A stretch of DNA of 40,724 nt from positions 1-40,724 of IMG/VR virus record IMGVR_UViG_2565956726_000012; one strand, given 5' to 3'. The notes under the pieces are model-generated. The model searched no databases, was not told the DNA's origin, and saw only the letters and a list, made by a program, of their open reading frames with translations. Within the stretch, counting starts at the first letter, position 1; the number at the start of each line of letters is the position of its first letter. Made by a program: the position numbers and the translations under genes. The DNA comes from a virus. Taxonomy: Duplodnaviria; Heunggongvirae; Uroviricota; Caudoviricetes. Below, piece by piece: positions 1,774 through 40,724 of this stretch.

Positions 1774-2399
1774 ACCGCCAGCACCTTACTGGCATTGATG
1801 TATCGCGCGCGCCGGTCGTCGATGCCGTTCCGGCCACCATTGATAATCAGAGTTACACGTGCAATATCGCCGGTATACTTCATGCATCCTTTGCTGGCAA
1901 AGAACCACGCCGCGCTACGAGCCGCGTATTCGTCCTGCGCCAGCAGTTCAGGACTCTCCAGCAGGTCAACCTTAAGACCGTTTCCACAGTCACGATAGTT
2001 ATTCAAACCGGTAACCTGGATAAGCCCGCGCCCACGGTAGTTCCAGCCATCACCAGGGGCATTGTTCCCCATGCGTTTGCTGTACACCAGATTGGCAATC
2101 GCTCTCTGGCGCTCAAGTGGCAATGGTGGTTCGCCTGCACGTCGCCCCAATGCGTTGGCCTGTCCCTGAGTGAGACGCCCAGCCCGAACAAAGTTAGCCA
2201 GTCCGGTGACGCTGTAGTTGAAATTTTCCTGCAACCGGTTGAAGCCACCAGACTCATGCCCGACCTGAGCAATAAACATTGCCTGATCTTCGGGTTTGCT
2301 GATACCAAACTCTTTCATCGCAGAAGTTATATGCGAGAACCAGCGTGCGGCCAGCGCCTCGCTAATACCAGCAGCTCGCTGGAATTGTTTAATCTCCAT
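1770..2399 (-). CDS. Endolysin, glycoside hydrolase family 19 (chitinase-like lysozyme)
   Basis: Motifs [29 protein letters not shown] typical of GH19 phage endolysins; GAGGT RBS 8 nt before ATG 2399; the longer track ORF to 2630 is an untranslated upstream extension. Confidence 0.85.
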
Positions 2400-2697
2400 G
2401 TTTAGACCTCGATATTTTGAAAATATGAACAACGTTACCGCGTGTTTTAATAACCGCGGCAAGCATGACAGCGTTGATAATGACCTCAGATAAATCCACA
2501 GCCATTGGCGTGCGTAACCAGATTGCATAGACGACACGAACAGGAATACTTGCCGCAGCAACAATAAGGAAATAAGCAAGCCACCCTCCCCATCTTCGAT
2601 GTTGAGAGCCGTTACGCCGGAATGTGACAACGCGAATTGCTATGCCAGTACAAATAACTGCATTGGTGATAAGCAAAAAAAACTCATGCGTTACCAT
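2389..2697 (-). CDS. Small lysis-cassette membrane protein (holin or antiholin-like)
   Basis: About three predicted transmembrane segments; overlaps holin stop and endolysin start. Confidence 0.5.
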
Positions 2698-3088
2698 CGT
2701 CTTTTCTCCCCGGAATTAACTCGCGTGGATTATCGGAACGGTGATAGAGCCAGATGCCAATACGCACGGCGACAATTGCTGACACGAATGCGCCTGCAGA
2801 GAAAACAATCCCTTTTTCAAAAGAGTCCTGCGTGATGGTAGGGATCAGGCTGGCTATGCCGATAAGAATTGATGCTGCTGGTTTGTAAAAGAGAAGGCCG
2901 CAAAGAAAGCTGAGCATCGACAGGAGCACCCGGCGACGGATGGGGTACTCTACTGCAGAGGTAACAAAAATTACCGCCCCAGCCAAAGCCCCTAAAGCAA
3001 CCTCCGGAGGGACACCTGCAATAACCGCAGCAAGAGAACTAACACTAAGCCACTGATTTGAAGTTTCATTGGTTAGTTGGAATGACAT
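2684..3088 (-). CDS. Putative holin
   Basis: 134 aa, multiple hydrophobic helices, charged C-terminus; first gene of lysis cassette immediately after tailspike. Confidence 0.55.
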   Translation of the reverse strand: MSFQLTNETSNQWLSVSSLAAVIAGVPPEVALGALAGAVIFVTSAVEYPIRRRVLLSMLSFLCGLLFYKPAASILIGIASLIPTITQDSFEKGIVFSAGAFVSAIVAVRIGIWLYHRSDNPRELIPGRKDDGNA

Positions 3089-3160
3089 AACGAAACCCGT
3101 TTATTTGCAAACACCCTGCTTCAGGAAAAGTATACCGCGCAACAACACACCATTTACGGT

Positions 3161-5623
3161 TCAATTCCCTGTTAATTGCAAAACTTGCTCTTCCAGCTTT
3201 TTAACCCTGCGTCTCATCATCGCAGATTCCAGAATCAGAGCCTCTTCATAACGGATACCGTAACATTCACCAGCCTCGACGGCTTCGCGTACCAGAACCT
3301 TTGTCTGTATAAGTGGGTAAACTCCTGCAGAATGCTCTTCTTCCGTCACATCCCTGTATTCTGCCGGGGCCTCATTCCACTTGTCATAACAGATAAATGC
3401 CAGTCGTGACACATCTATGCCTTCATTCTGAAATACACTGATAACATGCTGCGCAACTGCACCAAAGTGCCATCTTGCTCCGTCTTTACCTTTCACTTCG
3501 ATCCTGTCAAGGTACTGGTATGAAACCCATTCCACTCTTTCCCATGCGTCCAGTATTTTCTCATCAATAACCTCTGGAGCAGTCTTGAAACGCGCATCGG
3601 ACAGCACCGTAAACGCTGACTGGGTAAATCCCCCCGACCATGCACGACCAGCCAACCCAAGAGAATAAGTATTCGTTGTCGATGGTGTCATGGCTGAATC
3701 AGAAAACTGTATATATTCTGAATTTCCAGTAGATATTCGAATATTTCCATTTATTAGCGACATAGTGCCTTTAGTATTATCACTATTGAATAATTTCAAT
3801 TGCGAACTTATACCGCCTCCCACAGCCAGAGATACATCGCCTTCAGCAAGCATTCTGAATTTATCTGCAGAAACAAGCGTCTGGTTAGCAAGGTTAAAAT
3901 ATTTAACCCACCATTCAAAACGCCCTGACATAGTCCCAACGTACTGACCAAGCGCAGGGACGTGAACAACATTGCTATTTGTAGTGCCGTCTATACTGGA
4001 AATACCAGTCACCGCTGATGCAGAACTCAGAATATTATTTCTGTCACCCGGATGTTTAATTTCAACAAAGTTCCTGATACACCCTTCCTCGAAGGTAACC
4101 ACGCCGGAAGAACTATACATGGGGAATATTGACGCATAATTACTGCGTGCAGCATCTAAGAAACGAATGGTTGTAGATGTCTGCAGATCTCCTGATTCAT
4201 TTTTCCCATCACACCCAGTCATTAGAATATTACTGGCAATATTATTATTTCCCTGAACGGTGACGCCGTGCGCCTGCTTTGCGTCCGATTCAGAGTAATC
4301 AACCAGCACATCCGAAATCAGGTTACCAGTCCCCTTGCCAACAACTACTGCGGCGTATTTTGGGTTGTTAGCCATTACACTGCTAATGATATTATTCGTT
4401 GGGGCAGTTTCCGTCTCAGTTCCATTGTAAACAACGTGCTGACACTCTTCACCAATAACATTGCTGACAATGTTATATTTTGCTGCTGTTTTAAGTTCCA
4501 CTGCACCAAACTGAGGATAATTTCTGGCTATCACACCATCAATTAGCGTATTTTGCGATGAATCAAAAAGCACACAACCTGCTTTTTTATTATTTGCGAA
4601 CCCTAAATACTCTCCTCTTATATCTCTAACAATGTAACCTGACGGAATACCATTATCCGGATAAGCGATCAAGCTAAATCCTGGTCCTCGCGTATTTGTA
4701 AATCTGATATTTTTAACCGATACATCATGGCCACCTGAAAATGACACCTGGTGTCCCTGCACACTATCATCTGATTTATTTCCCATAATTGTTAGCGTAC
4801 TAAGCATGCCACCATCGGGCATGTTAAAAACCAGATGATTACCATCTCTGTCATACTGTTTTATCGTTCCCCCACCTGTTCCGTACAAGCCACAACGTGA
4901 AAGAGAAACTAAAGATGTATTGAATACCCCTTCCGGAACAAAAACACTGCTAAACGAATGTAATGATTTTGTAAAAGCATCCTTGTTATCATTTAAGATT
5001 CCATTTTGAGCTCCAAAATCCTTAATGCTGACACCATCACGCATCTTATCCTGGAACGTTCTGTATACCGCTCCAGAACCATACTGAATAAACCAACCAA
5101 AACCACCAATAACTCCGGCGATTGCAGCATCGACATAATTACGCATTGAGCGATTATTTACAGCGTCCTGCTCAAGTGATGGATCGGCAAGGTTAGATAT
5201 TCTGTTTTGCTTTGCATCGTAATATTTTGCAAGCAAAGATGGTTTCATCAATGCACGTCTGAACCACCCAAAACATCGCTGGATCAGCATCGTCAGGTAG
5301 TCAAATGCATCCTCATGAACTTCGGGGAAAAATTTTCCCTGATTGCGAAGATCAGTCTCCTGCACCACATCAAGCACACGCTCTATCGTGATTCGCCAGC
5401 CAGCAGCAAGCGGCGACGGAAGAACCACTGCACCGCCACTATAAGTTCCCGCCCCTGTTACCGTATAACCAGCATCCAGCACTAGTTTTGTAACGTTACC
5501 GTTAAGGTCAGACACCTGAACAACCAGGTCGGATTTTTTGAAAATACGGAAGGTATACGGAAATGATGTCGTAACGCCGTTACCTGTGTATTCGTTGTGG
5601 TCAACTTCGGTTGAGACCGTCAT
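3161..5623 (-). CDS. Tailspike/tail fiber with T7 gp17-like N-terminal adaptor domain, central beta-helix-type region and C-terminal intramolecular chaperone (peptidase S74) domain
   Basis: N-terminus NEYTGNGVTTSFPYTFRIFKKSDLVVQV resembles T7-type fiber N-termini; C-terminal SDARFK motif followed by a coiled-coil tail typical of self-cleaving chaperone domains; GGAG RBS. Confidence 0.8.
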   Translation of the reverse strand: MTVSTEVDHNEYTGNGVTTSFPYTFRIFKKSDLVVQVSDLNGNVTKLVLDAGYTVTGAGTYSGGAVVLPSPLAAGWRITIERVLDVVQETDLRNQGKFFPEVHEDAFDYLTMLIQRCFGWFRRALMKPSLLAKYYDAKQNRISNLADPSLEQDAVNNRSMRNYVDAAIAGVIGGFGWFIQYGSGAVYRTFQDKMRDGVSIKDFGAQNGILNDNKDAFTKSLHSFSSVFVPEGVFNTSLVSLSRCGLYGTGGGTIKQYDRDGNHLVFNMPDGGMLSTLTIMGNKSDDSVQGHQVSFSGGHDVSVKNIRFTNTRGPGFSLIAYPDNGIPSGYIVRDIRGEYLGFANNKKAGCVLFDSSQNTLIDGVIARNYPQFGAVELKTAAKYNIVSNVIGEECQHVVYNGTETETAPTNNIISSVMANNPKYAAVVVGKGTGNLISDVLVDYSESDAKQAHGVTVQGNNNIASNILMTGCDGKNESGDLQTSTTIRFLDAARSNYASIFPMYSSSGVVTFEEGCIRNFVEIKHPGDRNNILSSASAVTGISSIDGTTNSNVVHVPALGQYVGTMSGRFEWWVKYFNLANQTLVSADKFRMLAEGDVSLAVGGGISSQLKLFNSDNTKGTMSLINGNIRISTGNSEYIQFSDSAMTPSTTNTYSLGLAGRAWSGGFTQSAFTVLSDARFKTAPEVIDEKILDAWERVEWVSYQYLDRIEVKGKDGARWHFGAVAQHVISVFQNEGIDVSRLAFICYDKWNEAPAEYRDVTEEEHSAGVYPLIQTKVLVREAVEAGECYGIRYEEALILESAMMRRRVKKLEEQVLQLTGN

Positions 5624-34666: not shown

Positions 34667-34690
34667 ATATTTATTTCAGATAATAAATAT
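34667..34690. repeat. AT-rich 24-bp palindrome ATATTTATT-TCAGAT-AATAAATAT at the Cro-side promoter
   Basis: 9-bp arms, exact reverse complements. Confidence 0.7.
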
Positions 34691-34753
34691 TCACCCATAA
34701 GGTAACAAAAATCAAGGATAGTTACCTATGAGGTGCATTTACCTGTTGGGTAA
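34691..34753. promoter_or_regulatory. Immunity-region operator cluster: three adjacent copies (34691-34705 imperfect, 34722-34736, 34739-34753)
   Basis: TCACCCATAAGGTAA, TTACCTATGAGGTGC, TTACCTGTTGGGTAA between divergent cro-like and repressor genes. Confidence 0.65.
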
Positions 34754-34808: not shown

Positions 34809-35393
34809 ATGAAAAGTATCCAGGACGTCCGCAGGCAAAATCTCAACGACTTGATCGACCGTGAATTCAATGGTGTTCAGACGCGGATGGCAGAAAAACT
34901 TGGAACTCAGGCAAATCTGGTAAACCGCTGGGCTCTTGGCAAGAAGGTTATCGGCGACCAGGTTGCGCGAAAAATTGAAGCTGCCGCCAATAAACCCCGT
35001 AACTGGCTTGATATCGATCGCTCGCTTTCTCAGGAAGGTTTTCAGCCTGTCGGCCCAAGCGACATTGGTCAGCTGGCGGCTCACAACCTGGAACGCTGGA
35101 TGAGCGAAAGCCGCGACCTTTCAACGCAGGGAAAACTTCACCGCGCATCCGGCGTCGCCCAGGTGACAATCAGCCGCCTGTTAAACAATGAGGTCAGCGT
35201 TTCCATTTCCACCCTGGAGAATGTTGCATCCGCATTCGGGCGTCACGGATATGAACTACTGATTCACCCGCACGACCCTGCGACTATCAACTATGACCGC
35301 TCACGCTACGCATTGTTACCCGAAACCGAGAAAGCAAAGATCGAAAGTTACATTGAATTTGTCATCAACCAGAACGAAAAAAGCAAACAATAA
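34809..35393 (+). CDS. Prophage repressor with two tandem XRE-type HTH domains, no S24 peptidase domain
   Basis: Two HTH motifs (QTRMAEKLGTQANLVNRWALGKK and QGKLHRASGVAQVTISRLLNNE); no Ala-Gly/Ser-Lys autocleavage module; divergent from cro-like gene. Confidence 0.75.
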   Translation: MKSIQDVRRQNLNDLIDREFNGVQTRMAEKLGTQANLVNRWALGKKVIGDQVARKIEAAANKPRNWLDIDRSLSQEGFQPVGPSDIGQLAAHNLERWMSESRDLSTQGKLHRASGVAQVTISRLLNNEVSVSISTLENVASAFGRHGYELLIHPHDPATINYDRSRYALLPETEKAKIESYIEFVINQNEKSKQ

Positions 35394-35415
35394 AACTATA
35401 GTTTTCAGTAAGTAA

Positions 35416-35437
35416 GCCGCCTCATGGCGGCTTTTTT
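35416..35437 (+). terminator. Rho-independent terminator after repressor gene
   Basis: Stem GCCGCC/GGCGGC, loop TCAT, 6 T. Confidence 0.75.
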
Positions 35438-35450
35438 ATTGCCAGATAGA

Positions 35451-35465
35451 TTACCTTACGGGTAA
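35451..35465. promoter_or_regulatory. Operator copy H1 (TTACCTTACGGGTAA)
   Basis: Perfect half-sites, 20 bp upstream of the early-left -35. Confidence 0.55.
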
Positions 35466-35484: not shown

Positions 35485-35527
35485 TTGACACCAAACCAAA
35501 TAAGCATAATTATTACCCCAACGGTAA
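35485..35527 (+). promoter_or_regulatory. Early-left promoter (TTGACA -35, AT-rich -10) with operator copy H2 (TTACCCCAACGGTAA)
   Basis: Consensus TTGACA at 35485-35490; operator at 35513-35527 abutting the -10 region. Confidence 0.6.
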
Positions 35528-35546
35528 CAGACCGAGGTAACAAGTT

Positions 35547-35699
35547 ATGCAGTGGAAAATCATCAACGGTTGGTACTGCGTTACTGCATGCGGATTCATG
35601 AGCTGGAAGTTCCGCACCTTACAGGAAGGCATTAAGTGGGCTTTCGTCAGCAAAGAAGCTCGCGATGTAGCCAACGATAACGAGATATGGGAGGGCTGA
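35547..35699 (+). CDS. Small ORF (50 aa), first gene of early-left operon
   Basis: GAGG RBS 9 nt before ATG; Trp/Cys-rich; below track cut-off. Confidence 0.3.
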   Translation: MQWKIINGWYCVTACGFMSWKFRTLQEGIKWAFVSKEARDVANDNEIWEG

Positions 35700-35701
35700 T
35701 A

Positions 35702-36001
35702 ATGAACGTTAATCAGCAGAAAAATCTTCAAAAAATCATGCTGGCATTCGACAAGGACTACCGCCTGTCAGAACAGCTATATGACCGACAAGTTGAACTG
35801 ATTGAGAGCATCCGACTTCATCAACTGTCCTCAACTTTCGACGTTGTAACAGGCAAAGGCGTTCGTCAGGAAGTGCTGGAGGCTGCTAAAGACAGCCCTG
35901 AGTTCGAAGAACTGGTGGATGCCTACCGGCGCGAGGCAATGGCAATTATAGCGCGCTGGGATCTGGCGGATCAGCTTGATGGGCAGAGGGACGCGGCATG
36001 A
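35702..36001 (+). CDS. Hypothetical early protein
   Basis: GAGGG RBS; immediately upstream of exonuclease gene. Confidence 0.5.
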   Translation: MNVNQQKNLQKIMLAFDKDYRLSEQLYDRQVELIESIRLHQLSSTFDVVTGKGVRQEVLEAAKDSPEFEELVDAYRREAMAIIARWDLADQLDGQRDAA

Positions 36002-36897
36002 TGCGGAACGCTGGAATCATGGATAGAACAAAATACATCGGAGGAAGCGATGTTGCAGGGATTCTTGGAATTAGCCCATGGCGCACCCCGCTTGAGGTTT
36101 ATCTGGATAAGGTCCAGCCACGTGTCAAACCAGTAGACCCAAGCAAGCAGAAAGTTTTCACGCGTGGCCAGCGTATGGAGCCATACGTAATAGACCTGCT
36201 TTCTGAGGAAACAGGGATGGAAATCGTTCATCGCGGAAACCGCTATATCCACCGTGATTACGATTTTATTGCAGCTGAGATCGATGCAGAAGCAGCGTCA
36301 GGCGAGAACATTGAGATCAAAACAGTTAGTCCGTTCAAAGCCAAAGAATGGGGAGAAATCCAGACAGATGCAATTCCTGTGCATTACACGGCCCAGGCCA
36401 TGCACGGGTTGATGGTTACAAACAAACAGGTATGCGTTTTCGGTGTGCTTATCGGTGGCGACGACTTCCGAATCTATCGGGTTGAGCGTGATGAAGAAAC
36501 TATCCAGGCGATCTTAGAAAAAGAAATCGCTTTCTGGGACCGAGTGAAAAATCTTAACCCGCCGGAAGCTACCAGCGTAAGCGATGTATCGCTGATGTTT
36601 GAGAAAGATGCCGGGACAAGTATCGAGGCTGACGGAAAGGCACTCGCACTATTCAACAATCTACGAGACATGAAATCACGCAGAAAATCACTGGAAGAAG
36701 AAATAGCTATATCAGAAGAGAAGCTGAAGATGTACATGCAAGAGCACTCAGTCCTGACCCTGGACGGAAAGCCGCTCTGCACATGGAAATCTCAGATCAG
36801 CAACAGATTCGACCAGAAGCTATTCCAGTCAGTACACCCTGAGTTATTCGAAAAATTCAAAACAACAACGACACAACGCGTCTTCAGAATGAAGTAA
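35998..36897 (+). CDS. YqaJ-type viral recombinase exonuclease (lambda Exo-like)
   Basis: N-terminal GGSDVAGILGISPWRTPLEVYLDK signature of YqaJ/Exo PD-(D/E)xK nucleases; paired with recT. Confidence 0.85.
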   Translation: MMRNAGIMDRTKYIGGSDVAGILGISPWRTPLEVYLDKVQPRVKPVDPSKQKVFTRGQRMEPYVIDLLSEETGMEIVHRGNRYIHRDYDFIAAEIDAEAASGENIEIKTVSPFKAKEWGEIQTDAIPVHYTAQAMHGLMVTNKQVCVFGVLIGGDDFRIYRVERDEETIQAILEKEIAFWDRVKNLNPPEATSVSDVSLMFEKDAGTSIEADGKALALFNNLRDMKSRRKSLEEEIAISEEKLKMYMQEHSVLTLDGKPLCTWKSQISNRFDQKLFQSVHPELFEKFKTTTTQRVFRMK

Positions 36898-36906
36898 GGA
36901 GAAAAA

Positions 36907-37929
36907 ATGTCTATCAATGCACTTAAGGCAGCGGCTACCGGTAACCAAGTTGCACATCATAATGAGAAACCAACAACTCTGGCCGGACTTCTGGCAGACC
37001 CAAAAATTAAAGCTCAGATGGCTTTGGCACTTCCAAAGCACATGACAGCAGACCGTCTGGCGCGCATAGCAACCACAGAGATCAGAAAGGTTCCAAAACT
37101 TGCATCATGCGACCAAGCCAGCTTCCTGGGGGCAATTATGCAATGTGCCCAATTGGGTCTTGAACCAGGCGGAGCTCTTGGACACGCTTACCTGATACCG
37201 TTCGACAAACGCCAGAAAGTAAATGGAAGATGGGAAACCGTATCTACAGAAGCACAGCTGATTATCGGCTATCGCGGAATGATTGACCTTGCCCGCCGCT
37301 CTGGGCAGATCCTGAGTATCTCGGCTCGTACCGTACATACAAACGACAAATTCAGCTACTCATACGGCCTGGAAGAAACGCTCGAGCATTTACCTTGCGA
37401 AACAGGTGACAGCGGAGAATTAACGCACGTTTACGCCGTTGCACGACTGAAAGATGGCGGAGTCCAATTTGAAGTTATGAGCCGGGCAGACGTTGAGAAA
37501 GTTCGTGCACTGAGCAAAGCCGGTAGCAGTGGCCCATGGGTTGATCACTTCGATGAGATGGCTAAAAAAACAGTAATTCGCCGACTGTTCAAATATCTTC
37601 CTGTTTCTATTGAAATGCAGAAGGCTGTTGTTATGGATGAGCGCGCTGAAGCTGGACTTAGCCAAGATAACGCAGCTGTTATCACTGGTGAATATTCCGT
37701 AGTTGACGATGAGCGTCAACACCTGTCGCCAATTTCAGATTCAGAACGAGAAGAAGCTCGAGAATATATCATCGCGATACTTAATAGCCTGGATCCATCT
37801 GCTGAAGATGCAAAAACGATGTTCAAGCGCGCTGAAAATGAAATTAACACCATGGCTGAAAAGCTCGGTGATGAATATCACCAAAAATTCATGATGACGC
37901 TTAACGATATGCGTCCAGAATTCGAGTAA
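36907..37929 (+). CDS. recT: RecT single-strand annealing recombinase
   Basis: RecT family core (ASCDQASFLGAIMQCAQLGLEPG ... HAYLIPF); directly downstream of exonuclease. Confidence 0.9.
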   Translation: MSINALKAAATGNQVAHHNEKPTTLAGLLADPKIKAQMALALPKHMTADRLARIATTEIRKVPKLASCDQASFLGAIMQCAQLGLEPGGALGHAYLIPFDKRQKVNGRWETVSTEAQLIIGYRGMIDLARRSGQILSISARTVHTNDKFSYSYGLEETLEHLPCETGDSGELTHVYAVARLKDGGVQFEVMSRADVEKVRALSKAGSSGPWVDHFDEMAKKTVIRRLFKYLPVSIEMQKAVVMDERAEAGLSQDNAAVITGEYSVVDDERQHLSPISDSEREEAREYIIAILNSLDPSAEDAKTMFKRAENEINTMAEKLGDEYHQKFMMTLNDMRPEFE

Positions 37930-37978
37930 CCACCACCGCGGCGCCACGTGCGCCGCACTGCAACCAAGAGAGGTATTC

Positions 37979-38227
37979 ATGAAAGGTGCATTAGGTAAGA
38001 AAGAACTCCTGGCGGTGGTGCCACTGTCATGGAGCACTATCGACCGTATGGAGCGCGCAGGGGAATTTCCTAAACGCTGGTATATCACCGATAAACGCTG
38101 CGCATGGAACCGTGATGAAGTTGAGCGTTGGCTTGATGAACGTCAGGCAGCAAGCCCGGCAGAGTTCCAGGGTAAAAAGCCTCCTGTTCAGCAACGTGTA
38201 TATCGTCCCGTGAGCAACGCTGCATGA
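37979..38227 (+). CDS. AlpA-family DNA-binding protein (excisionase/regulator candidate)
   Basis: 82 aa; HTH region SWSTIDRMERAGEFPKRWYITDKRCAWNRDEVERWL resembles AlpA-type proteins. Confidence 0.65.
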   Translation: MKGALGKKELLAVVPLSWSTIDRMERAGEFPKRWYITDKRCAWNRDEVERWLDERQAASPAEFQGKKPPVQQRVYRPVSNAA

Positions 38228-38336
38228 GTGCGCTGCTAAGGCACTGGAGCAAATGGTCAGGATGGTACTTATTCCTGGCCTCTGTTTCAGCATGGCTTTA
38301 TCTGCTGGCATTAATTTTCAGAGAGGGTTGGATTAA

Positions 38337-38636
38337 GTGAGAAAGTTAAGCCGACTTGAAAAATATCACATGAATAAGGTTTCAATGCGCAGTCCGTCAA
38401 AGATTGTCGCCGTTACTCCTGCGGCGATAGAGATCGAAAAACGCGCGATTGAAAGAGAGAAAAAAGGGCAATTCCGCATTGCCGCTCACCTTTGGCTTCA
38501 GTGTATGGATGTTGCTTCTGGTGATGTTGAACGTGCAAGGATCGCGGTTCGCAGGGACCAATGTATCACAAAAGGTAACGGCCTTCGCCGTGGCGACTAT
38601 AGCGGCATAGGATGTTGTGGGGTGGTTTATGACTAA
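38337..38636 (+). CDS. PerC-like transcriptional activator candidate
   Basis: Segment AIEIEKRAIEREKKGQFRIAAHLWLQCMD resembles the PerC/Pch family as recalled; start codon ambiguous (GTG 38337, ATG 38370 or 38385). Confidence 0.4.
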   Translation: MRKLSRLEKYHMNKVSMRSPSKIVAVTPAAIEIEKRAIEREKKGQFRIAAHLWLQCMDVASGDVERARIAVRRDQCITKGNGLRRGDYSGIGCCGVVYD

Positions 38637-39279
38637 GAAATACACACTAATCTATGCAGATCCACCCTGGGTATACCGGGACAAAGCCGCAGATGGTAAT
38701 CGCGGTGCCGGTTTTAAATATCCGGTTATGAGTGTGCTGGATATCTGCCGCCTTCCTGTGTGGGATTTGGCCGATGAAAACTGTCTGTTGGCCATGTGGT
38801 GGGTGCCAACACAACCACTCGAAGCACTAAAAGTTGTTGAAGCCTGGGGATTCCGTCTGATGACGATGAAGGGCTTCACGTGGATAAAATGTGGTAGTCG
38901 ACAACCAGATAAACTGGTTATGGGTATGGGACACATGACTCGCGCCAATAGTGAAGATTGCCTGTTTGCGGTAAAGGGAAAACTACCTACGCGCATTAAT
39001 GCAGGGATCGTTCAGTCATTTACCGCACCGCGGCTTGAGCATTCAAGAAAGCCAGATATCGTTCGTGAAAAACTTGTGCAATTATTAGGCGATGTTTCTC
39101 GCATTGAACTGTTCGCCCGCCAGACGTCTCATGGCTTTGATGTTTGGGGTAATCAGTGCGAAGACCCGGCAGTGCAACTACACCCTGGATACGCGTTGGA
39201 TATTGGCGGATTAACAAATGCATTCAGCAATGCTCCGCTGTCACCAACAGACATCCAGGGGCGGGAGCGTGCTGCATGA
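38629..39279 (+). CDS. MT-A70 family DNA N6-adenine methyltransferase
   Basis: Catalytic motif IYADPPWVY (DPPW) near N-terminus. Confidence 0.8.
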   Translation: MTKKYTLIYADPPWVYRDKAADGNRGAGFKYPVMSVLDICRLPVWDLADENCLLAMWWVPTQPLEALKVVEAWGFRLMTMKGFTWIKCGSRQPDKLVMGMGHMTRANSEDCLFAVKGKLPTRINAGIVQSFTAPRLEHSRKPDIVREKLVQLLGDVSRIELFARQTSHGFDVWGNQCEDPAVQLHPGYALDIGGLTNAFSNAPLSPTDIQGRERAA

Positions 39280-39470
39280 ACAGGGCATCACCAGCAGATT
39301 TAAGAAAATGCCTTGAAACTGCAAACATGCTTGCACACAGCGGGATCAGGTTTGTTCCAATTCCCGCTGTCACTGATGCTGAATTTGCAACACTGTCAGC
39401 AATATTCGAAAACAAAATTGAATCACTGGCAGCAGAAGCAGAGATGGAAGAAAATCAGCAGAACTATTAA
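39276..39470 (+). CDS. Hypothetical small protein
   Basis: ATGA overlap with methyltransferase stop; 64 aa. Confidence 0.45.
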   Translation: MNRASPADLRKCLETANMLAHSGIRFVPIPAVTDAEFATLSAIFENKIESLAAEAEMEENQQNY

Positions 39471-39473
39471 ACG

Positions 39474-40724
39474 TTATTCCCCCGCCATCCACTTCTCAAA
39501 CTTCGACGGGGAGAACGGAATCAGATCCGTATGCTCCCCGTCAATCCATGAATCAATCATATCGGCCCACTGCTGCAACATGTAGGCGCGCTGTCTGGCG
39601 TATTCCGCTTTGTTATATACGGCGCGCACACCTTTCTGCTCATGTGCCAGAGCCTTTTCAATCCAGTCTGAAGGATAACCAGCCTCATGCAACAACGTAC
39701 TGGCTGTACGGCGCATATCATGTACAGTGAAGTCCTGAATATGCTCACCATCTTCATTTATTATTTTCACCGTTCTGTCGATCAGAGAGTTCAGCGCGGC
39801 ATTAGATAATGGCTTCCGGAAATTGTAACGACCAGGAACCAGATATTCACTTCCACCAGCGCACATCTGCAACCCGACCAATATATCCTGTGCCTGTTTA
39901 GGCAGGTAAATAACGTGCGCCCGGCTTCCCTTCATGCGGTCTGGAGGAATTGTCCATGTCCATTTTTTAAAATCTATTTCATCCCACGTTGCATTGGTGA
40001 ATTCGCCCTTACGAACCATAGTGATAAGCACCAGTTTTAAAGCCATTTTCATAGTGCCCATAGCACCAATGGCATCCAGCGTGCGGAAGAACAGGCCAAT
40101 TTCTTCTGGTGTCAGTGTTCGCTCTCGTGGTTTAAATATGGCGATAGACGAAGGTTTAATGTCAGCCGCAGGATTAAACAAACCATGACCACGGTCATTG
40201 GCGTGACGGTATACGCTACTGATGATCTCCCTGGCCTGCACTGCTGTTGCCCGGCCACCGCGTTCGACAATCCGGTCACACAAATCACGAACCATCGATG
40301 TGGTAATTTCAGCCATCATTTTATTGCCAAGAACCGGAAGTATGTCACGGTCGATCACCGCCTGTTTCATTGCGCGGGTACTGTCAGCCAGGATGACGTG
40401 TTTCATATAACTGTCGGTATGTACCGCAAACGTCTCGGCACCACGAATCTTTTTGATACCGTCACGTTTAGCCGCAGCCGGTGACTGGCCTGCTTTAAGC
40501 AGCTTCTTTGCAGCAATCAGTTCTTCTCGCGCTTCTGCCAGGCTGATACCGTCACGCCCATACTGCCCGATTACCAGTGTTTCGCGGCGACCGTTGATAC
40601 GGTAGTCATAGCGAAACGAGACCGTGCCTGACGTAAGCACAGCTACATACAGCCCGTCACGATCGGAGACCTTGTACAGTTTGTCCTGCGGCTTGAGGTT
40701 TTTTAATTTTGTATCGGTAAGCAC
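39474..40724 (-). CDS. int: Tyrosine integrase (P4-like family), 5-prime end at window edge
   Basis: N-terminal LTDTKLKNLKP...DGLYVAVLTSG...FRYDYR typical of P4-like integrase arm-binding domain; C-terminal catalytic region with HxxR and terminal Tyr region; GTG at the very last window codon so the true start may lie outside. Confidence 0.85.
   Translation of the reverse strand: MLTDTKLKNLKPQDKLYKVSDRDGLYVAVLTSGTVSFRYDYRINGRRETLVIGQYGRDGISLAEAREELIAAKKLLKAGQSPAAAKRDGIKKIRGAETFAVHTDSYMKHVILADSTRAMKQAVIDRDILPVLGNKMMAEITTSMVRDLCDRIVERGGRATAVQAREIISSVYRHANDRGHGLFNPAADIKPSSIAIFKPRERTLTPEEIGLFFRTLDAIGAMGTMKMALKLVLITMVRKGEFTNATWDEIDFKKWTWTIPPDRMKGSRAHVIYLPKQAQDILVGLQMCAGGSEYLVPGRYNFRKPLSNAALNSLIDRTVKIINEDGEHIQDFTVHDMRRTASTLLHEAGYPSDWIEKALAHEQKGVRAVYNKAEYARQRAYMLQQWADMIDSWIDGEHTDLIPFSPSKFEKWMAGE

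Follow-up and report, generated by a model that had tools for sequence, protein, structure and literature searches.

Two kinds of described protein are closest to the gene pair studied here. PerC, the founding member of its Pfam family, is encoded on the EAF plasmid of EPEC, and PchA, PchB and PchC are encoded by EHEC prophages; all are small, borne on mobile elements, and activate LEE1 against H-NS as part of a virulence regulon. The known target of PerC and Pch is the LEE1 promoter, which Pch group 1 alone activates, while groups 2 and 3 do not (PMC6265319), so membership in the family does not predict LEE activation. Pch works by lowering H-NS occupancy (PMC4764244). In the same study, Fukui et al. 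saw no co-precipitation of Pch with H-NS and favored competitive DNA binding, and a purely protein-binding mechanism is thus not established even for Pch. A second group of small proteins, the ANR family (Aar and Rnr), comprises anti-activators built of three helices; they work by protein-protein binding, with AraC-type regulators and H-NS as their partners (PMC4983702).

For the methylase, the characterized relatives are M.EcoPA8orf6770P, gp5 of the Stx2a phage phiPA8, and M.EcoGV, from an O104:H4 Stx2a phage, which have the MT-A70 fold and DPPW motif in common with the enzyme described below. M.EcoPA8orf6770P is biochemically active, and changing its DPPW to APPA abolishes the activity (PMC10810198). 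For M.EcoGV, the REBASE assignment cited in PMC6602927 is GATC in DNA. Other prophage methylases are silent in lysogens (PMC5778455, PMC4659465), among them M.EcoGI and M.EcoGII, which are non-specific orphan beta-class adenine methylases of E. coli prophages (PMC5778455).

Both kinds of gene occur together in temperate podoviruses. In phiV10 they are p34 ("transcriptional activator," PF06069) and p33 ("DNA methyltransferase"), and in epsilon15 the equivalent pair is gp31 and a methyltransferase. We analyzed a stretch of 40,724 nucleotides (IMG/VR record IMGVR_UViG_2565956726_000012; here called the window) and found that it is a phiV10-like (Uetakevirus) temperate podovirus prophage adjoining guaA, with the phage type, gene order, and guaA site of phiV10. 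The window gives 98 to 100% nucleotide matches to phiV10-like phages and complete E. coli genomes, and the module that contains the pair is present in 559 of 5,426 complete E. coli genomes. In the matching genomes, guaA lies past the integrase (just beyond it in NZ_CP138217), and the existing annotations read "PerC family transcriptional regulator" and "MT-A70 family methyltransferase." The two proteins are 98 to 100% identical to phiV10 proteins with the same annotations, and there is essentially no difference from phiV10, with 98% identity for the methylase and 100% for the PerC-like protein over the 83 aa that were compared. Both genes are already known and bear these names in the records of phiV10 and epsilon15, as well as in hundreds of E. 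coli genomes annotated by PGAP. As a discovery the pair matters little; some residual interest lies in the disputed substrate of the methylase and in the use that a phage has for a PerC/ANR-like helical protein.

The early-left operon

The pair lies near the end of a plus-strand operon that begins past the repressor gene (34809-35393). An intrinsic terminator (35414-35433, plus strand), with an 8-pair stem of which 6 pairs are G-C, followed by a T run, lies between the two and separates the lysogenic transcript from the early-left operon; phiV10 has an annotated terminator at the same place. Our consensus scan detected only one sigma-70-like plus-strand site upstream of the module, a predicted pL-like early-left promoter at 35485-35513 (plus strand; TTGACA, 17-nt spacer, AATTAT) that matches 10 of 12 consensus positions. 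The corresponding epsilon15 promoter is arranged in the same way (TTGACA, 18 nt, ATTATT) and overlaps an annotated repressor site. Operator-like palindromes are found on either side of the predicted promoter. One, TTACCTTACGGGTAA (35451-35465), lies 5' of the -35 hexamer, is tied by inverted repeats I1, I3, and I6 to palindromes at 34689-34753 in the divergent immunity region, and has the form TTACC-N5-GGTAA of the sites that the epsilon15 RefSeq record labels "repressor, lysogeny." The other, TTACCCCAACGGTAA (35513-35527), abuts the -10 hexamer and is shared with the immunity region; its epsilon15 counterpart, TTACCCAAAAGGTAA, is annotated as a repressor-binding site. These promoter, terminator, and operator calls combine consensus scans with analogy to the epsilon15 annotation, and by that analogy the palindromes on both sides of the promoter are of the kind that the repressor binds in phages of this group. 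With a single, operator-flanked promoter, both genes of the pair should stay silent in a stable lysogen and be expressed early once the prophage is induced or a new cell infected. Read-through of the repressor transcript or a weak internal promoter may also feed the operon; for the Stx-phage homologue of the methylase, transcription in lysogens close to stationary phase has been reported (PMC10810198).

From this promoter to position 39470 there are nine close-packed ORFs, mostly with overlapping start and stop codons, and the consensus scan detected no plus-strand promoter or terminator between 35513 and 39470. The operon includes two recombination genes (35998-37929), encoding a YqaJ/lambda-exo-type exonuclease (35998-36897, plus strand; Pfam YqaJ, 83 bits; phrog_434) and RecT (36907-37929, plus strand; Pfam RecT, 193 bits; phrog_148). 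Downstream are genes for an 82-aa AlpA-family protein (37979-38227, plus strand; Pfam Phage_AlpA, 24.2 bits against 21), which falls in phrog_66, "excisionase and transcriptional regulator," and shares that annotation with epsilon15 gp33, and for a 38-aa membrane protein (38224-38340, plus strand; phrog_17484, E = 2.6e-27), whose counterparts phiV10 p35 and epsilon15 gp32 are annotated "membrane protein." The stop codon of the 38-aa ORF overlaps the GTG start of the PerC-like ORF (GTGA), the methylase ATG sits in the last codons of the PerC-like ORF (ATGACTAA; 8-nt overlap), and the start of the final operon gene, which encodes a 64-aa DUF1382 protein (39276-39470, plus strand; Pfam DUF1382, 105 bits), overlaps the methylase stop (ATGA). 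Convergent with the operon is the gene for a P4-type tyrosine integrase of 416 aa (39474-40724, minus strand; Pfam Arm-DNA-bind_3, Phage_int_M, and Phage_integrase), which has the length of the phiV10 integrase and whose start codon forms the window end. An earlier sequence-only reading of this DNA had placed the pair next to the integrase; the pair does adjoin it, with the one DUF1382 gene in between.

Conservation of the pair and the question of virulence cargo

The same reading had described the two genes as cargo through which the prophage could influence host virulence regulation. The corresponding account is that of lysogenic conversion: the PerC-like protein would be made in the lysogen and there, like PerC and PchABC, switch on virulence promoters of the host (LEE1/ler), and the methylase would alter the host methylome and host expression. 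In its favor are the genuine PerC homology, the infection of LEE-positive O157:H7 by phiV10, and the Stx-phage methylase homologue, which raises virulence-related phenotypes through higher spontaneous induction (PMC10810198). We nevertheless judge this account to be very improbable, since the genes have overlapping codons within a repressor-controlled operon whose promoter is bracketed by operators, and their placement and conservation are those of phage genes. The marks of a moron were not found: the consensus scan detected no promoter or terminator belonging to the pair itself, and patchy presence together with atypical composition was not seen, the GC content of the module (0.495) being phage-like next to 0.47 to 0.50 in adjoining sequence. 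The pair is kept at the same position in phages or prophages of four host genera, namely, epsilon15 and SPC32H of Salmonella, Tyrion of Enterobacter, a prophage of Klebsiella, and phiV10. Salmonella, Klebsiella, and Enterobacter are not known as carriers of LEE, and several of the best-matching hosts of the window, such as O7:K1 strain CE10, are presumably extraintestinal. Among the Pch groups, LEE activation is limited to group 1, and the likeness of the window protein to PerC and Pch is confined to the core. Phage ZX5 is nearly identical, and its PerC-like protein does not differ from that of the window in the 83 aa compared; a host lysogenized by ZX5 showed no significant change in adhesion, biofilm, or virulence (PMC9782041).

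The pair thus consists of standard early genes and is not autonomous virulence cargo, and the label "PerC family" does not by itself make a prophage a virulence modulator. The account that we prefer, and regard as reasonably likely, is that the early-left (recombination/excision) operon of a phiV10/epsilon15-type prophage by guaA, under repressor control, has these two as its final genes of any substance, with the PerC-like protein acting on host regulators and the methylase acting on phage DNA.

The PerC-like protein

The first ORF of the pair (38337-38636, plus strand) has a GTG start and encodes a PerC-family protein of 99 aa (Pfam PF06069). The weak resemblance to PerC/Pch activators that the sequence-only reading had noted was confirmed by a Pfam profile search, in which the protein scored 30.1 bits with PF06069, where the gathering score is 22.6 (E = 6e-07). 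The match is partial, with aa 35 to 80 (nt 38439-38576) aligned to profile positions 5 to 50 of 90; phrog_868 ("transcriptional activator") matches end to end (E = 5.7e-62). In pairwise comparisons the protein is 40% identical to EPEC pMAR2 PerC over 60 aa (BLASTP, E = 2e-10) and 34% identical over the core to a group-1-like Pch fragment, the C-terminal part of which is unaligned; only the core is shared with PerC and Pch, at 34 to 40% identity over 35 to 60 aa. The phage subfamily alone has an N-terminal KYH helix and a C-terminal GVVYD tail, both outside the PerC/Pch likeness. Other starts have been annotated, at ATG 38385 by PGAP (83 aa) and at ATG 38370 in phiV10 (88 aa), but the 99-aa form is supported by N-terminal residues, H11 among them, that are conserved in 37 homologues. 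All 41 distant relatives that we collected also match PerC, and a profile search of 1.84 billion cluster representatives returned 72 clusters at E ≤ 0.001, all PerC-type, which revealed no new function. The HMM searches that had been proposed for PerC and MT-A70 both gave scores above cut-off, so that the earlier reading is not refuted by want of a PerC-family hit, and profile and pairwise matches far beyond chance indicate that both ORFs are genuine.

An AF2 model of the protein (mean pLDDT 74.8, a moderate value, from a shallow alignment) shows an N-terminal helix and three further helices in a small helical bundle. No helix-turn-helix or other DNA-binding fold is seen in this model, no solved structure was matched by sequence, and a fold search with the model returned only non-significant MIT/TPR-like three-helix matches in the PDB (best E = 0.9). 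The protein does resemble the ANR family, at a level below threshold: NCBIfam NF033650 gives 23.6 bits (E = 3.4e-05; model positions 7 to 49 of 54) against a curated cut-off of 32 bits, and the same likeness is found in PerC itself and in 32 of 41 family representatives. Like ANR proteins it has a three-helix core, here a predicted one, and it may share the pattern A-x3-E-x7-A-x3-W...R-x3-C. When set against the published ANR signature (A10, E14, A22, W26, A29, W43, R47; PMC4983702), residues A37, E41, A49, W53, R72, and C76 align by spacing, while A29 and W43 correspond to C56 and R68, so that the second conserved ANR tryptophan is missing. At 99 aa the window protein is also longer than ANR proteins, which have under about 70, and no AraC-type gene lies near it in the 34.8- to 40.7-kb part of the window.

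By analogy with Pch, PerC, and ANR proteins, the PerC-like protein probably modulates host nucleoid or regulator proteins in lytic growth, and it is probably not a classical sequence-specific activator. It would act on such host proteins as Pch and PerC do in relieving silencing by H-NS, StpA, and Hha, and this action would open silenced promoters, of the phage or of the host, during lytic development. Unlike PerC and PchA/B/C, it would do so from a repressed lytic operon. A broader version of this proposal, which we put forward only tentatively and consider rather unlikely, is that PerC/Pch and ANR form one superfamily whose ancestral home is the conserved early gene of epsilon15-type phages; the phage protein would be a host-takeover factor, binding H-NS- or AraC-type regulators once the prophage is induced, and domestication of copies of it would have given rise to PerC, Pch, and Aar.

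In its extreme form, this broader proposal adds a role as partner subunit of the overlapping MT-A70 methylase, and such a role can also be considered by itself: the PerC-like protein would be the partner or specificity subunit in phiV10-type phages, replacing the winged-helix protein PNB-2 in one heteromeric m6A writer. The 8-nt start/stop overlap suggests translational coupling, MT-A70 enzymes are mostly heteromeric (PMC10810198), some distant PerC-core proteins are fused to winged-helix domains, and ORFs in which PerC and MT-A70 are fused in frame occur in public assemblies (P0187, 297 aa; P0185, 263 aa). The fusions, however, are 97 to 100% identical to the window and can be accounted for by the loss of 1 nt from a T run or by an internal deletion; they may reflect errors or decay, and we judged them weak as "Rosetta stone" evidence. 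In addition, one to three extra small genes (a small ORF, DUF1317, a winged-helix protein, or DndB) part the pair in epsilon15, Tyrion, SPC32H, and the Klebsiella prophage, the methylase of Stx2 phage F004 has no PerC-like gene among its annotated neighbors, and in EPEC the PerC gene accompanies perA and perB and has no methylase gene beside it. We therefore regard a partner-subunit role as highly improbable. A dedicated regulator of phage promoters only (e.g., for integrase/excision or late genes), with no host target, is less remote but still doubtful. It would fit the strictly single position of the gene, beside the AlpA-type excisionase/regulator in every Uetakevirus examined, and the "transcriptional activator" label in PHROGs and RefSeq; against it, the model has no DNA-binding fold, the relatives of known mechanism act via host H-NS-type complexes or AraC-type proteins, and no candidate target site was found. 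Action on host regulators is the reading that we retain for this protein.

The MT-A70 methylase and its substrate

The second ORF encodes an orphan beta-class MT-A70 N6-adenine methyltransferase (Pfam PF05063) of 216 aa at 38629-39279 (plus strand); an earlier listing gave the ORF as 38617-39279, and ATG 38629 is the likeliest start. Its identification as an MT-A70 enzyme with a clear DPPW motif in the sequence-only reading held up, with PF05063 scoring 80 bits against a cut-off of 23.9 over model positions 1 to 172 of 172. The catalytic motif IV DPPW (GAT CCA CCC TGG; aa 11 to 14; 38659-38670, plus strand), read directly from the sequence, is intact, aligns with that of the 7f4r and 7f4l chains, is invariant in five phage orthologues, and lies N-terminal to the AdoMet-binding region, as in beta-class enzymes. 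SRKPD (aa 139 to 143) and ELFAR (aa 160 to 164) align with the SxKP(D/E) and E(L/I)FAR motifs of solved MT-A70 chains. Relatives in the PDB include ciliate-type "MT-a70 family protein" chains (E = 4e-13) and METTL3 (E = 6e-06). As to membership in a defense system, PADLOC matched the methylase to generic MTase_II models only (257 bits) and gave no match to the other four proteins. The enzyme is an orphan and not part of a type II restriction-modification pair; its neighbors are the PerC-like gene, DUF1382, and the integrase, and no cognate restriction endonuclease adjoins it.

Compared with its orthologue from Stx2 phage F004, the window methylase has 83% identity and 90% positives over aa 1 to 187; the alignment ends at residue 187, beyond which the tails are unrelated. 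The N-terminus of the F004 orthologue (TLIYADPPWTFRD) is identical to the mutagenic-primer sequence published for M.EcoPA8orf6770P, apart from the engineered DPPW-to-APPA change (PMC10810198). Given its 83% identity to M.EcoGV and M.EcoPA8orf6770P, we infer that the window methylase is active and carries out AdoMet-dependent N6-adenine methylation. M.EcoGI and M.EcoGII were rejected as characterized relatives because they belong to a different family, being 349-aa enzymes with DPPY and a central recognition domain, in contrast to the 216 aa, DPPW, and MT-A70 domain found here; M.EcoGIX was also rejected, as plasmid-borne and ssDNA-specific.

The substrate of this widespread small enzyme is disputed, GATC in DNA or 16S rRNA, and phiV10-type phages, which naturally have no PNB-2, provide a clean test case. 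Made alone, the methylase would most likely place m6A on DNA, at GATC if it follows M.EcoGV, and its target would be the replicating phage DNA, which it would possibly protect. The main alternative is a role on 16S rRNA: like the phiPA8 holoenzyme, the enzyme would modify 16S rRNA in 30S subunits and so tune translation and the frequency of spontaneous induction. Together with PNB-2, M.EcoPA8orf6770P does show a preference for 16S rRNA and 30S subunits and makes spontaneous induction more frequent (PMC10810198), the window enzyme is 83% identical to the Stx2-phage enzyme over its first 187 residues, and METTL3, an RNA methylase, is among the nearest eukaryotic relatives of solved structure. 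The rRNA preference, however, needed PNB-2, and M.EcoPA8orf6770P without it is weak and non-specific in vitro, the base modified being left unmapped in that study (PMC10810198). The Pfam profiles detected no PNB-2-like winged-helix gene in the module, and the STEC-type C-terminal tail proposed to bind PNB-2 is not present in the window methylase, which differs past residue 187. The GATC assignment of M.EcoGV (PMC6602927) also concerns DNA. We therefore consider an RNA substrate unlikely, if still a serious contender, and favor action on phage DNA.

We rejected the idea that PNB-2 is itself a PerC-like protein: the two could not be aligned even at E ≤ 100, and the one profile match of PNB-2 is a weak one to HTH_11. 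We also dropped GATC avoidance or enrichment as a clue to specificity, as the window contains 158 GATC sites where 159 ± 11 are expected, a count that is uninformative either way. The Stx2-phage locus differs from that of the window in having PNB-2/PNB-1 upstream of the methylase, and the window phage is a podovirus and not a lambdoid Stx phage. Even so, the Stx2-phage enzyme is likewise encoded a few genes from the integrase, and in phage F004 a DUF1382 gene comes next.

Gene layout and predicted operon of the PerC-like/methylase module

Five closely spaced ORFs lie on the + strand at 37.9 to 39.5 kb of the window, with neighboring genes sharing a few bases (38227/38224, 38340/38337, 38636/38629, and 39279/39276). 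They encode AlpA (37979-38227, 82 aa; Pfam AlpA, PHROGs excisionase/regulator), a membrane protein (38224-38340, 38 aa; no Pfam family, PHROGs membrane protein), a PerC-like protein (38337-38636, 99 aa from a GTG start; Pfam PerC, end-to-end match to PHROGs phrog_868, "transcriptional activator," E = 5.7e-62), a methylase (38617/38629-39279, 216 aa from the ATG at 38629; Pfam MT-A70, PHROGs phrog_359, "DNA methyltransferase," E = 3e-120), and a DUF1382 protein (39276-39470, 64 aa; Pfam DUF1382, PHROGs unknown). The integrase gene (39474-40724, - strand, 416 aa; Pfam P4-type integrase, PHROGs integrase) is convergent with the module. The DPPW motif of the methylase is encoded at nt 38659-38670 (+ strand; aa 11-14). 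The HMM search against Pfam matched both the PerC and MT-A70 families, and the coordinates and names that the sequence-only reading gave to the PerC-family ORF and the DPPW-containing methylase are correct.

Upstream of the module are a double-HTH repressor gene (34809-35393), a strong intrinsic terminator downstream of that gene (35414-35433), and a near-consensus + strand promoter (35485-35513; TTGACA, 17 nt, AATTAT). A consensus scan found no further promoter-like or terminator-like site on the + strand from 35513 to 39470. Two palindromes, TTACCTTACGGGTAA (35451-35465) and TTACCCCAACGGTAA (35513-35527), lie on either side of this early-left promoter, and both recur in the divergent immunity region (34689-34753); TTACC-N5-GGTAA-type palindromes occur five times, three in that region and two around the promoter. 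All five match repressor-binding sites annotated in epsilon15, whose curated record has equivalent sites, TTACCCAAAAGGTAA and TTACCAAAATGGTAA, overlapping the same promoter and annotated "repressor; lysogeny." With a sole promoter flanked by such palindromes, the module is predicted to be part of a repressor-controlled early-left operon in the order two small ORFs, exonuclease, RecT, AlpA, membrane peptide, PerC-like protein, methylase, and DUF1382. The GC content of the module (0.495) is in line with that of adjacent sequence. The promoter and terminator calls come from consensus scans plus analogy with epsilon15, and within that limit autonomous expression from a repressed prophage is not supported.

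The PerC-like protein and its similarity to ANR regulators

The PerC-like protein scored 30.1 bits against Pfam PerC (cutoff, 22.6) and is 40% identical to enteropathogenic Escherichia coli (EPEC) PerC over 60 aa (E = 2e-10) and 34% identical to a group-1-like Pch fragment over 35 aa. The alignment covers the core only, with aa 35 to 80 corresponding to profile positions 5 to 50 of 90. The subfamily is small: searched exhaustively with a profile, 1.84 billion cluster representatives yielded 72 clusters at E ≤ 0.001, and Pfam PerC matched each of the 41 sequences scanned (39 distant representatives along with the window protein and EPEC PerC). A few of the 41 also have weak winged-helix Pfam matches (MarR/HTH_24-like), and PerC-core proteins P0136, P0141, P0165, P0175, P0180, P0182, and P0184 are 140 to 160 aa long, with an N-terminal extension of ~70 aa.

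Public annotations place the start codon at the ATG at 38385 (PGAP, 83 aa) or the ATG at 38370 (phiV10, 88 aa), while the epsilon15 record has a 300-nt ORF matching the 99-aa form. The 16 residues upstream of the PGAP start are conserved at the protein level: the residues read from the GTG at 38337 (KL..L.KYH) are kept across genera; in the E. coli, Enterobacter, and Salmonella phages compared, K3, L4, L7, K9, Y10, and H11 never vary, and the last of these shows conservation of 90% or more in 37 homologues. This conservation makes the GTG-initiated form, as in the epsilon15 annotation, the likely product, and the public start codon is probably miscalled.

The AlphaFold2 model (mean pLDDT, 74.8; 84 to 90 across residues 31 to 80) has an N-terminal helix, three more helices (H28-43, H46-59, and H63-82), and a disordered tail, with no helix-turn-helix. 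Foldseek against the PDB gave no significant match to this model, the best nonsignificant ones being MIT and TPR-like helical domains, and a PDB sequence search found no match. Some distant PerC-core proteins have a probable winged-helix domain at the N terminus (Pfam), consistent with DNA being read by a part other than the core, and this suggests that the core may be an effector or partner module.

A further, subthreshold resemblance is to ANR, a family of AraC negative regulators. The PerC-like protein scored 23.6 bits against NCBIfam ANR_neg_reg (NF033650; model positions 7 to 49 of 54) and canonical EPEC PerC scored 18.2 bits, both below the cutoff of 32; such subthreshold similarity, spanning nearly the entire model, was seen in 32 of the 41 PerC-family sequences scanned (best E = 3.3e-9). 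Residues A37, E41, A49, W53, R72, and C76 of the PerC-like protein are spaced as in the published ANR signature, but the second conserved Trp of ANR is missing (PMC4983702). The two families have in common an A-x3-E-x7-A-x3-W...R-x3-C signature, a link that we did not encounter in the PerC/Pch and ANR literature cited here. ANR proteins work by binding AraC-type activators (PMC4983702), and a further paper describes binding to H-NS as well (PMC10148876). Pch activates LEE1 only under silencing by H-NS/StpA/Hha/YdgT and reduces H-NS occupancy; coprecipitation of Pch with H-NS was not seen, and the authors prefer competition on DNA (PMC4764244). The PerC-like phage protein probably targets nucleoid or regulator proteins of the host at an early stage of lytic growth. 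Antagonizing H-NS with a phage-encoded protein is an established strategy (T7 gp5.5 and T4 Arn).

The methylase, its candidate substrates, and the question of a partner

The methylase matches Pfam MT-A70 over its full length, and its DPPW, SRKPD, and ELFAR motifs align with solved ciliate-type MT-A70 chains and METTL3 and are invariant in orthologues of phiV10, Tyrion, SPC32H, and an Stx2 phage. No adjoining endonuclease gene was found with Pfam searches of the module ORFs or defense-system models, so the enzyme is an orphan. It is present in 516 phage records (tblastn), among them ~120 Stx2/Stx2a-converting phages, whose orthologues are 83 to 84% identical over aa 1 to 187. Past residue 187 the C-terminal tails are unrelated, the last 20 to 30 residues being lineage specific. 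A DUF1382 gene follows the methylase in both loci. The occurrence of this gene pair in the podovirus-type prophage (38629-39470) and in lambdoid Stx2 phages (3001-3799 of the locus compared), with 83% methylase identity and a lineage-specific tail, suggests a two-gene cassette that moves between phage types.

The Stx-phage relative is M.EcoPA8orf6770P, gp5 of phiPA8, which increases spontaneous induction in a DPPW-dependent manner (Gong et al., PMC10810198). By itself this enzyme is weak and nonspecific, and in complex with PNB-2, which the upstream gene encodes, it has a preference for 16S rRNA and 30S subunits (PMC10810198). The same paper describes the highly similar M.EcoGV as methylating GATC in vivo on overproduction (PMC10810198), and a second paper lists it as GATC specific (PMC6602927). 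In contrast to the Stx-phage locus, the window lacks PNB-2; no PNB-2-like winged-helix gene was found in the module, and pairwise comparison found no similarity between PNB-2 and the PerC-like ORF. From the MT-A70 match, the motifs, and the Stx-phage results, the window methylase is very probably active, and for an enzyme lacking this partner, DNA at GATC is somewhat more likely as the substrate than rRNA, the main rival. The frequency of GATC in the window (158 observed versus 159 ± 11 expected from shuffles) shows neither avoidance nor enrichment and has no bearing on substrate choice. Directly upstream of the orthologous methylase, Tyrion has a gene for a 75-aa winged-helix protein (2784-3011 of its locus), which may be an analogue of PNB-2, and SPC32H has one for a DndB-family protein (1937-3004 of its locus).

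The PerC-like protein could itself be the partner of the methylase, as their ORFs overlap by 8 nt and public assemblies contain two in-frame PerC-methylase fusion ORFs, P0187 (297 aa) and P0185 (263 aa). However, the fusions, which could be genuine variants or artifacts of assembly, are 97 to 100% identical to the window, and one is accounted for by a missing T in the T run of the GTTTATG overlap and the other by an internal deletion. Moreover, related phages have other genes between the two, and each gene is found elsewhere without the other. This evidence outweighs that in favor, and we consider such a partnership very unlikely.

Conservation of the pair, virulence, and spread of the prophage

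The PerC-like protein is present in 36 phage records (tblastn), with identities of 98 to 100% in all phiV10-type E. coli phages, 78 to 79% in epsilon15, SPN1S, SPC32H, and other Salmonella phages, 71 to 76% in Enterobacter phages Tyrion and BUCT554, and 66 to 68% in Klebsiella phages and prophages. Its gene follows the AlpA gene in the loci inspected in detail, and in epsilon15, a Klebsiella prophage, Tyrion, and SPC32H an MT-A70 gene also lies between it and the integrase gene. In these four, the spacer between the pair is a small ORF, DUF1317, or the 75-aa winged-helix or DndB-family protein; phiV10-type phages lack spacer genes, so the two ORFs abut. Judged from these loci, the pair is a conserved trait of the phage genus across four host genera.

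The sequence-only reading, whose naming and observation were correct, took the two genes for cargo that could influence host virulence regulation, and neither interpretation is supported. Against cargo stand the predicted repressor-controlled operon, in which no promoter of the module's own was found, a GC content like that of the neighbors, and conservation across the genus. As for virulence, Pch groups 2 and 3 are homologous to PerC yet fail to activate the LEE (PMC6265319), so membership in the PerC family alone predicts little. Phage ZX5, 97.6% identical over the module and with an identical PerC-like protein across the 83 aa compared, inserts at guaA, and its lysogeny caused no significant change in host growth, biofilm, stress response, HeLa adhesion, or virulence (PMC9782041). 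Silence in lysogens has been reported for other prophage methylases. A virulence effect is conceivable in LEE-positive hosts following induction, but nothing supports one. The remaining interest lies in which substrate this small MT-A70 clade modifies and what a PerC/ANR-like protein does in phage development.

The 1.6-kb module shows 98 to 99% identity with phiV10 and related phages (O157 typing phages 9 and 10, ZX5, phiv142-3, and TL-2011b), several human E. coli isolates carry prophages 100% identical to it, and it is present in 559 of 5,426 complete E. coli genomes, almost always as a single chromosomal copy. In NZ_CP138217, guaA-guaB lies beyond the integrase, and PGAP names the products "PerC family transcriptional regulator" and "MT-A70 family methyltransferase"; in the RefSeq entry for phiV10, the two genes are supported by PF06069 and an N6-MTase signature. 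Both are already annotated in reference phages and hundreds of genomes. In its left part the window matches phiV10-type lysis and tail genes and is therefore essentially a complete prophage. It starts exactly at an ATG (1-516) and stops exactly at the integrase start codon (40722-40724), which suggests trimming at gene boundaries, and the attachment sites and guaA junction fall outside.
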